From UHGV virus genome UHGV-0379599: a DNA stretch of 35,664 nt; one strand, written 5' to 3'. This stretch comes from a virus. This document shows, piece by piece, positions 5,335 to 11,320 of the stretch. Within the stretch, counting starts at the first letter, position 1. Each line of letters opens with the position of its first letter. A program made the translations under genes and the position numbers. The notes beneath the pieces were generated by a model, which searched no databases, was not told the origin of the DNA, and saw nothing but the letters and a program-made list of their open reading frames with translations.

Positions 5335-5341
5335 AAATTAA

Positions 5342-5368
5342 GGCCCGATAGCGGGCCTTGTCTCATTC
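5342..5368. terminator. Hairpin (GGCCCG-atag-CGGGCC) in the convergent G/U intergenic region
   Basis: Inverted repeat directly after the G stop, followed by TTGTCTCATT on + and a T-run on -. Confidence 0.4.
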
Positions 5369-5540
5369 AGGTTGTTCGGGAAACGTTGCTGGCAGGCTGG
5401 AGGTGTCTGTAGATTCGACTTTCTACGCGTAGAGCATCCACTCGGTTAATTTTTGTTTATTCTCGTCGGAAATGATGTCCAGCCGTAGCTGTGAGTCCCA
5501 TAGGCGATATACAGGCCGAAGAAACAACCAGGCAGATCCA

Positions 5541-5582
5541 GGAAAAAGAAAACCGCTAATCTGACCATTAGCGGTTTTTGTG
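5541..5582. terminator. Bidirectional rho-independent terminator (ACCGCTAAT-ctgacc-ATTAGCGGT flanked by A-run and T-run)
   Basis: 9-bp perfect stem with TTTTTGTGTT downstream on + and an A-rich tract upstream (T-run on -); sits just after the end of U on -. Confidence 0.6.
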
Positions 5583-5587
5583 TTAAA

Positions 5588-6082
5588 TCAGAACAGCCCT
5601 TTAACTGAACTGGCCGCGCTGTTAAGAGATGATGTCACCTTATCTTTGAAGCCGGACAGCATATCGCTGAATGATGAGGATTGCAGGCGCTCCCGCAAAT
5701 CCTCATCACAGCGTTCAAGGGTCAGTGAAAATTCTATCTTTTTCGCCTTACCGTAGCGATCAAACTCGGAACGGGTCGTATTCGTTTCAGTCAGCACATA
5801 CATGCCGTAAATCTGCCCGACACCATCAATCAGAGGCCAGGGGCGTCCTGTATATGCCTGCGTGGTCAGCAACGAAAGCGACACTTCACCACCTGTAATT
5901 TCAGGATAAAGCACGCCGGAAAGCACAATGCGATCATCACCTGCACCGATATACTGCCAGCTTGCTGAACGGTTAACGCGTTCATTTTTCACATGCCGCC
6001 AGCTTTTGTTTTGCTGTAACTGCTGATGCGGCAGTGTGCGCAGCTCAAAAACAAACATGCCGTAGATCATCATCATGACCAT
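5588..6082 (-). CDS. U: Tail protein U
   Basis: 164-aa ORF immediately downstream of the tape measure gene on -; size and position as P2 U. Confidence 0.7.
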   Translation of the reverse strand: MVMMMIYGMFVFELRTLPHQQLQQNKSWRHVKNERVNRSASWQYIGAGDDRIVLSGVLYPEITGGEVSLSLLTTQAYTGRPWPLIDGVGQIYGMYVLTETNTTRSEFDRYGKAKKIEFSLTLERCDEDLRERLQSSSFSDMLSGFKDKVTSSLNSAASSVKGLF

Positions 6083-6088
6083 GACTCC

Positions 6089-8932: not shown

Positions 8933-9090
8933 GCCAGCTAACCACTTCGCCGGGCGTCATCATGAAGATTTCGGCGGGCGACCAGTTAAAAATAACGGCA
9001 ATATCTGCCACAAAGTCTTCTATGTGCTCAAAGCACACAACCGTGATCAGGCTTCCGTCGCCTGTTCGTTCTTCCCGCCAGAGTCCGCAC
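8883..9090 (-). CDS. E': E' extension reached by programmed -1 frameshift from E (E+E' product)
   Basis: Slippery heptamer TTTTTTG on the - strand (complement of + 9084-9090) within codons AAT TTT TTG of E. The -1 frame stays open to 8883 and overlaps the T start, as in P2 E/E+E'. Confidence 0.65.
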
Positions 9091-9412
9091 CGCTCAAAAA
9101 ATTTACGGCAACCACACATAACTGAATAAAGTCACGGGATGCCATTTTTTTGATCGTCACTTCATCCAGTCGCGGTGATGTCACGCGTGACAGCAGCGTA
9201 AACATGGATTCCGCTTTCAGATTCAGCACATCAGACAGCGACAAATCTCGCAGAGATCCAGCCTGCTCAATAGCCCCGGTGATCTCCACATACGTGATTT
9301 TTTCGCCGCCTCGCTCAATTGGTTGGGTAAGTTTTACGCCACGCTCACTGGTTTCTTTCACAGTGTCAGCAACTACCGTGTTTTCGGTATCGATGTTTTT
9401 CGTCTCTTTCAT
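9047..9412 (-). CDS. E: Tail assembly chaperone E
   Basis: 121-aa ORF between the tail tube and tape measure genes; contains the slippery site near its 3' end. Confidence 0.75.
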   Translation of the reverse strand: MKETKNIDTENTVVADTVKETSERGVKLTQPIERGGEKITYVEITGAIEQAGSLRDLSLSDVLNLKAESMFTLLSRVTSPRLDEVTIKKMASRDFIQLCVVAVNFLSGADSGGKNEQATEA

Positions 9413-9466
9413 CAGGAAACTCCTTTCAGTCAGAGGCGACGCACTGCGCCGCCTGCATATTACTTA

Positions 9467-9979
9467 TCAGCCAAGCCCAAGCGCGGAACGGATGCGATCG
9501 GGCACAATGTCCTTGCCGTCCTTCCGGTAAATGAAGTTCAGCAGATCAATCTCCCACAACGGGCGATCGTTAACACTCAGCTTGTAGTAGGTGTTTTTAA
9601 TGGCGTAAGTGTGTGATGTGGCTTCGCCCTGTTTGGCTTCCCCCATATCAATTTCCGTCACACGTCCGCGCATTTCGACTTCATACAGGTCGCTTTCTGC
9701 ATCGGTGTAGTATTCACCCGCAAAACGCAGCAGCGTGCCGTCAATCGTGCCGCCATACTTAAGGAACAGCTCACGAACTGCGCCCCCCATGACAAAGCTC
9801 GCATCAAGCGCGGAGTCGTCCAGACCGAGATCAATACTTACCGCACCCATCATGCCGCCCCCCCGGTAGCTGTCGGTTTTGCGCGTCAGTTTGGGCAGAG
9901 TGACGGACGTCACCTTACCCACTTCGTTTTCACCATCCACAAACAGCGTAAAAAAACGAAGATGTTTTGGCACAGCCAT
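9467..9979 (-). CDS. FII: Tail tube protein FII
   Basis: 170-aa ORF; ATGA overlap with the FI stop at 9979; position after the sheath gene. Confidence 0.8.
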   Translation of the reverse strand: MAVPKHLRFFTLFVDGENEVGKVTSVTLPKLTRKTDSYRGGGMMGAVSIDLGLDDSALDASFVMGGAVRELFLKYGGTIDGTLLRFAGEYYTDAESDLYEVEMRGRVTEIDMGEAKQGEATSHTYAIKNTYYKLSVNDRPLWEIDLLNFIYRKDGKDIVPDRIRSALGLG

Positions 9980-11163
9980 CAGGCACCTCCCAGCACCGCA
10001 AATGCGGGACCAAAGAATTCATCAGTAAACGTCTGGTAAAGCTCCATGTCTTCCAGCGGGGGAACGGGCGTATATTTGTAGCGAATACGCACACGCCCCT
10101 GACGTAAATCCGTGGTGCCGTTATCCACCACGTCATACCAGCACTCCGCGCCAATCAGTTTCCCGGCAGTAACCAGCGAATCCAGTTTTGCCCTGATGGC
10201 GCTGATAACATCCTTCACGTTCGCAGGCGTCAGTGGACTGTCGATGGTTTCAAACTGCGCTTCCGCAATTGAATCAGCCAGCACCTGTGCGGTTCGGGTA
10301 TACACCTCAAAGATGTAGGCGTTCGTTTCCGGTGTGCGGTTGCCCCAGAAGCGGAACCCGTTGCGACGAATAATGGTCGTGATTTCTTTGTTGTTGAGGC
10401 TGTTGGCATCACTGTCTTCGGCCTGTAATGACCAGAACACATGCCTCGACATCCCCAGCACATTTTTAACCGGAACGTTGGACAGTGATTTGTGCCACCC
10501 CTGCTCATGGTCAATGTACGCACGAAGGCCGCACGCATAGGCAGGCGCGGGGAACGTTTCGTTTTTGCCACTTTTCGGGTTGTAGGCGATGAAGTCCGGC
10601 CATAAGAGCATCACCTCACGTTCGTTGAATTTCTGGCGGTAGGTAATCGCCTCAGCCATCGTGTTACAGCCGTGACATGAGGCATACACAAACGCGCGCA
10701 GTTTACCTGCAATCACGCACAGGGATTTTGTTACAGCCTCCGTGTCCAGCTCCGGCGCAGCCAGAATACGCGGACGGTATCCGATGCTTTCATCCTGCTC
10801 TGCAACAAGCAGCGCATACATCCCCGTATAGCTGCCGTCATCCTCAGAACCACCGATAACCAGTTGATCCTGCGTCTTTCCGTCTTCTTCTTTGTGTTCA
10901 GCCACGCGAACGACGATCACCTTTGTGCTCACCTGGTCTGCGATGGCCTTAAGCGCACGATAAAGCGTCCCCGTTGTTCCGCATTTTCCCAGCACGTCAT
11001 TGACGCGGGTCAGCAGTGTGGGCTTGTTCAGCGGGAACAGCTTCGCGTCCGCATCATCCGCCGTTGCCACGATACCGATAACGCTGGAATCAACATCGTT
11101 AATCGCTGTTACCAGGTCGGTATTTTCCGTAACACGGGCACCATGAAAACGAGTTTCACTCAT
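9979..11163 (-). CDS. FI: Contractile tail sheath protein FI
   Basis: 394 aa; matches recalled P2 FI blocks (FPLNKP, ADQ, KLRAF, WPDF, EQGWHK.LSNV, IRR.GFRFWGNRT, YTRTAQV, YTPVPPLE). Confidence 0.9.
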   Translation of the reverse strand: MSETRFHGARVTENTDLVTAINDVDSSVIGIVATADDADAKLFPLNKPTLLTRVNDVLGKCGTTGTLYRALKAIADQVSTKVIVVRVAEHKEEDGKTQDQLVIGGSEDDGSYTGMYALLVAEQDESIGYRPRILAAPELDTEAVTKSLCVIAGKLRAFVYASCHGCNTMAEAITYRQKFNEREVMLLWPDFIAYNPKSGKNETFPAPAYACGLRAYIDHEQGWHKSLSNVPVKNVLGMSRHVFWSLQAEDSDANSLNNKEITTIIRRNGFRFWGNRTPETNAYIFEVYTRTAQVLADSIAEAQFETIDSPLTPANVKDVISAIRAKLDSLVTAGKLIGAECWYDVVDNGTTDLRQGRVRIRYKYTPVPPLEDMELYQTFTDEFFGPAFAVLGGA

Positions 11164-11320
11164 AGCTTCAGCCCCTTGTATCCGTTAAATGATTCGGCAA
11201 CAATCATCACCCACCACGCGCGTAATCTCACCCCTGCGCTATTCTCCCGCCACGGCGACAACAAAAAGCAGTAACCCCCTCCGCACGCACATGCGACCAT
11301 GCCGTACAGGGAGGGAACAG

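Follow-up and report, generated by a model that had tools for sequence, protein, structure and literature searches.

The genome analyzed here, UHGV virus genome UHGV-0379599 (35,664 nucleotides [nt]; hereafter, the window), carries a tail gene block, FI-FII-E/E'-T-U, that encodes the sheath, tube, and tape measure proteins and that points in the opposite direction from its counterpart in phage P2. The window is a complete, circularly permuted P2-type genome of a P88-like temperate phage (Peduoviridae, Xuanwuvirus), and both of its ends fall inside the baseplate gene J. We consider it probable that this layout stems from one ancient inversion shared by an entire clade, that the inversion is fixed and non-switchable, and that the spacer between FI and D acts as a bidirectional late promoter.

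Genes were called from a six-frame list of open reading frames (ORFs) together with Pfam scans (Table 1). A P2-like contractile-tail gene set is present: homologs of FI, FII, E/E', T, U, and D were identified by BLASTP and tblastn at 32–49% identity to the P2 proteins. The organization of the P2 F operon is absent. Specifically, the minus strand carries FI through U, and the plus strand carries D, H, and G. H and G run toward U, and FI and D point away from each other on either side of a 157-bp spacer (11164–11320). G is the final gene of a long plus-strand late unit that runs from O to G. The original prediction had proposed these gene identities and strands and had stated that, in P2, the F-operon genes are co-directional with H and G; the ORFs and Pfam matches bear out the former and the P2 record agrees with the latter.

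The same layout exists in numerous named phages. A megablast search with positions 4800–12500 returned 13 phage records that cover at least 80% of this region at 92–98% identity. Phage P88 (NC_026014) heads the list, with 94.4% identity across 99% of the region, and PhiR44_2 aligns to the region as a single piece. The annotations of both phages read G (plus), then U, T, E', E, FII, and FI (minus), then D (plus). Of 24 proteins tested against P88, 21 are 88–100% identical, with order and strand alike. Likewise, P88, PhiR44_2, 500465-2, Chuche, and Citrobacter phage phiSM match the window in gene order and strands throughout, and their proteins are mostly 95–100% identical to those of the window. 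The inverted block is also found in the Klebsiella phages ST16-OXA48phi5.4 (Reipivirus, from its annotation) and Kp4876-2 (Reginaelenavirus, by tblastn). In a 6-kb fragment of Serratia phage KSP20, a D-like gene (minus) faces an FI-like gene (plus), again the divergent arrangement.

The layout is also abundant. Of 5,426 complete E. coli genomes, 1,355, or approximately a quarter, match a 1.1-kb probe spanning the FI/D junction over at least 80% of its length, with identities mostly of 95–99% among the matching records. An IMG/VR scan with FI alone revealed 437 close relatives, whose matches, being only 99–100% identical, show abundance rather than depth. Among the 80 IMG/VR loci kept, D was found in 75, and every one of these has D on the strand opposite to FI and upstream of it. 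Thus, a very common group of prophages has this layout as its ordinary map, and public annotations already show it; the original prediction had regarded it as unusual, and it is instead the norm among close relatives, as P88, PhiR44_2, and the survey described below make clear.

These counts also bear on the possibility, raised in the original prediction, that the block was flipped or mis-joined during assembly of the contig. The difference from P2 could hint at such an artifact, as could the rarity of the window's exact G/U junction, which is shared with just 14 of the 5,426 complete E. coli genomes. That junction, however, is accounted for by a clean 2-kb deletion relative to P88, and the FI/D junction recurs in finished E. 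coli genomes, in independently sequenced phage isolates, and in all 75 informative IMG/VR loci, with PhiR44_2 aligning to the region unbroken. We therefore assign an artifact a negligible probability.

To gauge depth, we aligned the sheath proteins of the window and of P2 and used the alignment to scan a single genome from each species, which yielded 80 loci, and tblastn was used to place G, I, J, V, W, U, T, FII, FI, D, ogr, and the P88 invertase on them. The inversion is found in every one of the 23 loci that share at least 57% FI identity with the window: ogr and D (minus) are followed by FI, FII, T, and U (plus), and these by the invertase, where present, and by G, I, J, W, and V (all minus). 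The hosts of these loci are Salmonella, Citrobacter, Edwardsiella, Enterobacter, Kosakonia, Symbiopectobacterium, Erwinia, Mixta, Pantoea, Trabulsiella, Izhakiella, Klebsiella, and Pectobacterium. The inversion occurs in none of the remaining 57 loci. Specifically, all 55 that have D in the fetched DNA are collinear, as is P2, and for the other two, the fetched DNA contained nothing beyond FI or T.

Neighbor-joining trees separate the two layouts. The midpoint root fell beside the clade, so rooted monophyly failed for W, V, and J, and an unrooted split test was used. The split of inverted from collinear loci is free of exceptions for FI and U, which reside in the block, and for D and W, which reside outside it. 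Divergence from P2 is likewise uniform: identities of the block proteins are 45% for FI, 44% for FII, 33% for T, 32% for E, and 46% for U, and those of other proteins are 48–49% for D, 41% for N, 44% for P, 47% for Q, and 46% for V. Given the clean split in the trees combined with this uniform divergence, the sequences support a single ancient in-place inversion that has been vertically inherited, rather than a foreign cassette or repeated events. The original prediction had listed a lineage-specific rearrangement or inversion among its explanations, and, relative to the collinear P2 order, that explanation now extends to an entire clade and to an ancient event.

A competing notion is module replacement, in which a sheath–tube–tape-measure cassette from another myovirus lineage was inserted in reverse. 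Phage genomes are mosaic, and H and G have clearly been exchanged in this one (84–89% identity to P2 and 94% to lambdoid side fibers); moreover, T is the most divergent gene of the block. If the block were foreign, however, its proteins should not be as far from P2 as the head, terminase, and baseplate proteins are, nor should genes inside the block and genes outside it yield one and the same clean split. We give replacement a very small likelihood.

The direction of the change is a separate question. Collinear survey loci include those of Burkholderia, Paraburkholderia, and Trinickia, and, because these betaproteobacterial relatives are collinear, the collinear order suggests itself as ancestral. 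Phages phiCTX and HP1 and the R-pyocins are collinear as well. The opposite polarity, with a divergent FI/D arrangement as the ancestral state and the P2 order derived from it by inversion, draws on the rooting of the trees: with only a midpoint root or none, they do not fix where the root lies. It is very unlikely in light of the collinearity of the betaproteobacterial loci and of all enterobacterial P2-type loci, and of the confinement of the inverted state to one split. Rearranged tail operons have also been reported for Smp131, another P2 relative (PMC3931495).

At the G/U junction, the window has undergone a deletion. Window positions 4592–5503 align to P88 24645–25556, and 5539–6200 align to P88 27550–28212. 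The intervening P88 25557–27549, approximately 2 kb, is missing from the window; it comprises the rest of the U' gene, the alternative fiber tip, and nearly the entire invertase gene, of which the window retains only the last 15 nt. Relatives retain the complete fiber segment along with an invertase beside U, the invertase gene being present in P88 and in many others. What the gap of the window retains is the 144-bp U' remnant, the vestige of an invertible tail-fiber segment, and two hairpins (Table 1). With the invertible fiber segment and the invertase deleted, the fiber of the window is locked in one form. The region from 4800 to 5503 is 89–91% identical to the U–U' region of Mu, D108, P1, and P7. 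In the gap, the hairpin at 5549–5578 (core stem CCGCTAAT/ATTAGCGG) is trailed by a T-run in both directions, which makes the bidirectional terminator proposed at the outset a fair description.

One could imagine that the FI–U inversion is itself recent or reversible, driven by a Gin/Cin-type invertase, and that the block is switchable. In P88 and many prophages, the invertase gene abuts U, and one locus, L079, displays a different rearrangement flanked by two invertase genes. However, the Mu G and P1 C segments, on which Gin and Cin act, concern the fiber tip only and do not provide a mechanism for FI–U inversion. Where the invertase is present in relatives belonging to the inverted clade, it adjoins U on the fiber-gene strand and serves the fiber segment. 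Comparison of 5300–5620 with 11130–11350 for inverted repeats or shared sites, whose absence had already been noted by eye, gives only chance matches of 7–8 nt, and a repeat search gives no pair that spans the junctions. Only a single orientation is seen in the 23 diverged loci, the 75 IMG/VR loci, and the named phages; none of the relatives examined, to as low as 57% FI identity, departs from it. Furthermore, the window keeps the layout despite having lost its invertase, and D possesses its own Shine–Dalgarno sequence and conserved upstream elements. A switchable block is, in our judgment, extremely improbable. As for L079 (IMGVR_UViG_2654587728_000014, 3499–10700), T is interrupted there at residue 455; its C-terminal half, along with U and an invertase gene, is inverted, and a second invertase copy sits at the other breakpoint; the arrangement reflects either recombination between two prophages or misassembly.

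The position of the invertase also indicates what was inverted. In collinear relatives that carry it, the invertase lies directly upstream of FI, and in inverted relatives it lies beside U; therefore, the inverted segment spans from upstream of the F-operon promoter PF to the end of U. In P2, an operon boundary falls in the gap between G and FI, which contains PF, the terminator of the V operon, and the non-essential gene fun(Z).

We next consider how D could be expressed. The four late promoters of P2 share the motif TGT-N12-ACA and depend on the activator Ogr (PMC3931495). The window contains five exact matches to TGT-N12-ACA, which is below chance, and none falls in a late-gene spacer, FI/D included. 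To this extent, the original prediction, which reported no Ogr-type motif in the FI/D spacer, is correct. What it missed is a conserved one-mismatch form, TCT-N12-ACA, at 11243–11260. Because an alignment of relatives revealed which part is conserved, we adopted this one-mismatch dyad in place of the exact motif. In the P2 record, the annotated activator sites of promoters PP and PO, which share a site, and of PF read TGT-N12-CCA and thus also carry one mismatch. Across the spacers of 22 diverged loci, conserved islands stand amid variable sequence, the strongest being TTTTTGTTGTC...CAGA in the FI orientation. The dyad, which reads TGT-N12-AGA in the minus-strand direction, persists in 20 of the 22 loci, and the exact TGT-N12-ACA is present in L103, L105, L106, and Kp4876-2. 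The dyad followed by ACAA appears in both the P/O and FI/D spacers of phages from three genera, namely the window and the two Klebsiella phages.

Most telling is the geometry around the dyad. In the window, ST16-OXA48phi5.4, and Kp4876-2, hexamers of the form xAxxxT occupy dyad offsets 35–41 on both sides of both spacers. With that of the window given first, they are GATGAT, GAATAT, and GATGAT on the FI side; GACCAT, AATCAT, and AACCAT on the D side; CATCAT, GATGAT, and CATCAT on the O side; and, on the P side, TAATCT in each phage. Position 2 is A and position 6 is T in every hexamer variant of the genome loci. In P2, the annotated PP and PO starts, separated by 111 bp, each lie 47 nt beyond an edge of a single dyad, with the −10 elements at offsets 35–41. 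A sigma-70 scan of 4800–14500 gave no site within the FI/D spacer; in the manner of P2 late promoters, this spacer presents predicted −10 elements and no recognizable −35. By analogy to P2, FI transcription is predicted to begin near 11196 and D transcription near 11306–11308. The P/O spacer resembles the FI/D spacer in length: it is 154 bp when O starts at 28684. O probably does start there, as that ATG has a GAGGGG ribosome-binding site and agrees with the P88 annotation, and the longest O ORF, from 28651, has no ribosome-binding site. The best reading of the FI/D spacer, judged from its sequence and from analogy, is that it would be a two-way late promoter of the PP/PO kind.

Two further features of these spacers are of note. 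Guanine–cytosine (GC)-alternating elements, CACGCGCG and CGCACGCAC (CGCGCGCG in relatives), occur at 11214–11222, 11283–11292, and 28560–28569. They sit in the interval that runs from the dyad to the −10-like hexamers of the P and D sides and are conserved across genera. A plus-strand match to the P-side element, CGCGCGTAATCT at 11216–11229, was evaluated as an extra D-directed promoter and rejected because it is only 14 nt from the dyad and is limited to the E. coli/Salmonella lineage.

Could the inversion be real and yet D be driven by an independent promoter, constitutive or responsive to another factor, with the dyad serving FI only? The D-side −10-like hexamers are weak (GACCAT, for example), the interval from the dyad to the D-side hexamer contains a conserved CACGCGCGCG-like element, and P2 PF is unidirectional, with no xAxxxT hexamer on its far side. 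Nevertheless, the spacer harbors no sigma-70-like site, and the distance from dyad to hexamer on the D side, 34–35 nt, equals that on the FI side and that of P2 PP/PO. A2 and T6 persist while neighboring bases vary, and the phage's own P/O spacer is similarly two-sided. An independent D promoter is, on balance, unlikely, though it deserves more consideration than the alternatives above.

Several points weigh against a single, clade-wide inversion that carries a two-way FI/D promoter. On the evolutionary side, the V tree has one intruder in the inverted split and, in the J tree, two Pectobacterium loci fall outside it, exceptions that indicate some local mosaicism; in addition, polarity is read from outgroup layout only. 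On the regulatory side, the dyad pattern failed in L092 and in the degraded L134, and clade members are kin, so that conservation overstates independent support. The weakness of the D-side hexamers has been mentioned. Exactly two copies of the extended motif TTGTTGT-N12-A[CG]A are present in the window, one in the FI/D spacer and one in the P/O spacer, against 0.145 occurrences expected, but the motif was defined after both sites had been seen, and the count is thus partly circular. Finally, we infer both the activity of the FI/D promoter and its dependence on Ogr from sequence patterns.

With these points in mind, we propose the following history. In the ancestor of an enterobacterial clade of P2 relatives that comprises Xuanwuvirus, Reipivirus, Reginaelenavirus, Serratia KSP20, and prophages of enterobacterial genera, the segment from the FI promoter through U would have inverted once. 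One breakpoint would be where P2 has an operon boundary, with the fiber/invertase region on one side and the FI promoter on the other; the second would be at the U/D boundary, inside the P2 F operon. The inversion would have set the symmetric Ogr-binding dyad of the FI promoter beside D, such that the central dyad is now approximately 55 nt upstream of the predicted starts of both the minus-strand FI-FII-E/E'-T-U transcript and the plus-strand D transcript, the latter possibly reading through to ogr. The DNA that precedes D is antisense to the FI operon, and, therefore, D cannot be reached from upstream plus-strand promoters. Because S overlaps V, the window has no separate PV promoter; as there is also no third dyad in the window, four late transcription units would apparently run from two activator sites, P/O and FI/D. 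The FI–U transcript and the long O-to-G transcript would end at the hairpins in the G/U gap.

We lean modestly toward a stronger version of this proposal: that the inversion was tolerated because the Ogr dyad is symmetric, that a one-way promoter was thereby made two-way, that all late genes are expressed from P/O and FI/D, and that read-through from D is the only Ogr-dependent route to ogr. If so, the ogr positive feedback loop is now separate from sheath and tube expression, and the case would illustrate how the symmetry of an activator site lets phage genomes undergo rearrangements that break operons. A sigma-70-like site precedes ogr at 13700–13728 in the promoter scan, and P2 ogr likewise has its own such site. 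More simply, the predicted two-way promoter provides a straightforward account of how D and ogr could be expressed once they were severed from the F operon.

Table 1. Genes and regulatory features of the window, with supporting evidence.
Feature	Position	Strand	Evidence and remarks
I	712–1272	+	
H	1283–3604	+	Pfam Phage_tail_fib
G, tail-fiber assembly chaperone	4807–5334	+	Pfam Caudo_TAP, 6.7e-34; 89% identity to P2 G
GC-rich hairpin right after G (AAGGCCCGATAGCGGGCCTT)	5340–5359		Terminator scan; inside the stretch common to the Mu/P1/D108 U–U' region
144-bp 3' remnant of Mu U'-like alternative fiber chaperone gene	5360–5503	−	P88 alignment; Mu/P1 U–U' matches
Bidirectional intrinsic terminator hairpin, 12-pair stem	5549–5578		Terminator scan and direct reading
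U, final gene of inverted block	5588–6082	−	Pfam Phage_P2_GpU, 5.5e-39; 46% identity to P2 U
T, tape measure	6089–8932	−	Pfam PhageMin_Tail; 95% identity to P88 T
E', −1 frame relative to E	8883–9119	−	Pfam Phage_P2_GpE (PF06528), above cut-off
E	9047–9412	−	Weak Pfam Phage_TAC_7
FII, tail tube	9467–9979	−	Pfam Phage_tube, 7.5e-47
FI, tail sheath, first gene of inverted block	9979–11163	−	Pfam sheath domains; 45% identity to P2 FI over 383 residues
Predicted −10 of FI promoter, GATGAT (GATTAT in most relatives)	11203–11208	−	34 nt from dyad edge
Ogr-type dyad TCT-N12-ACA (minus strand TGT-N12-AGA), then ACAAAAAG	11243–11260 (center 11251.5)		Conservation
Predicted −10 of D promoter, GACCAT (AATCAT/GATCCT in relatives)	11295–11300	+	34 nt from dyad edge
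D, baseplate hub ("late control D")	11321–12430	+	Pfam Phage_GPD; 48–49% identity to P2 D
PIN-domain gene, inserted between D and ogr	12604–13674		Pfam PIN_12; low GC, 40%
ogr homolog, late activator	13759–14019	+	Pfam Ogr_Delta (PF04606), 52.4 bits versus cut-off of 26.3; 42% identity to P2 Ogr
P-side −10-like hexamer, TAATCT	28554–28559	−	
Other copy of extended dyad, TCT-N12-ACA and ACAAAAGC	28594–28611		Divergent P/O spacer
O-side −10-like hexamer, CATCAT	28648–28653		

Elsewhere, the window encodes an integrase, a repressor, and replication genes; Q and P are minus-strand genes, and O through W are plus-strand genes. In the tape measure gene, the ORF extends to a GTG at 8932, but the ATG at 8896, used in the P88 annotation, is the likely start. 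For E/E', a slippery site, T_TTT_TTG at 9101–9095 on the minus strand, is predicted from sequence to be a P2-type −1 frameshift signal. The PIN_12-domain product (356 residues) is probably accessory or defense-type cargo; PADLOC returned no meaningful match for this gene and its neighbors. The tail fiber region, 1283–4803, consists of three abutting ORFs: the 773-residue H, a 92-residue ORF with no family match, and a 303-residue protein with T4 gp34/gp37 trimerization domains. Positions 2309–3573 are 94% identical to side tail fiber genes of siphoviruses such as Tritos and 2G7b, and the fiber region, whose GC content is low (41–45%), appears mosaic.

Some records merit comment. In E. coli O157:H7 (for example, NZ_CP064167.1), the match to the junction probe ends at query position 889 (window ~11588), and these strains probably carry the FI/D junction with a truncated D in a decayed prophage. 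Two contigs of Vagococcus sp. WN89Y, L086 and L131, hold a P88-type prophage (FI 97–98% identical to that of the window, on a 226-kb contig) and a P2-type one. As Vagococcus is a Gram-positive genus label, this finding suggests that the assembly is contaminated or mislabeled.

For annotators, the message is that the layout should not be treated as an error. The D start is best set at 11321, where it is preceded by a strong GGGAGGG Shine–Dalgarno sequence and coincides with the start annotated in P88 and PhiR44_2; the D frame is open back to an in-frame ATG at 11189, which is probably unused. Given the likely regulatory role of the FI/D spacer, small ORFs placed within it are probably spurious, as are FI or D calls that extend too far. 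RefSeq, for instance, has a 43-residue ORF in the P88 spacer (33155–33286), PhiR44_2 has another, and FI of ST16-OXA48phi5.4 (L165 35465–36763) is annotated 126 nt too long, across most of the spacer including the dyad. These annotations are likely errors. In the literature searched, we found no discussion of tail-gene orientation, and the P88 and phiSM papers are silent on orientation, inversion, and the sheath. The modestly new element is the putative bidirectional Ogr-type promoter at FI/D, to which the spacer sequences point. This predicted promoter is relevant to the engineering of P88-type phages or tailocins.

P88, a close named relative, differs in a handful of respects: the window lacks its invertible fiber segment and invertase through the 2-kb deletion, H is only 67% identical over the first 210 residues, and the integrase and repressor are 43% and 34% identical, respectively. 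The window also has a PIN-domain gene between D and ogr, which are adjacent in P88 and in other relatives. ST16-OXA48phi5.4, Kp4876-2/3LV2017, and KSP20 have the block inverted as in the window, with an FI that is only 68–71% identical, and they fill the G/U gap with other genes, such as one for a DUF262 protein. These phages carry the window's dyad in both the P/O and FI/D spacers, with the exact TGT-N12-ACA in Kp4876-2. With respect to P2, the F operon (PF-FI-FII-E/E'-T-U-D, then ogr) matches the window in gene set, in FI-to-U order, in type of frameshift site, and in the succession of D and ogr. In P2, however, these genes are co-directional with H and G, are driven by the single promoter PF, and include a U that overlaps D, whereas in the window FI–U is flipped and D, cut from the operon, needs its own promoter. 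P2 PP/PO offers the precedent for such a promoter: a single dyad approximately 55 nt from two opposed starts, with one mismatch and no −35, which the FI/D spacer, with its predicted starts, would resemble. P2 uses the two-way design at P/O only; in the window it appears at P/O and, we infer, at FI/D.

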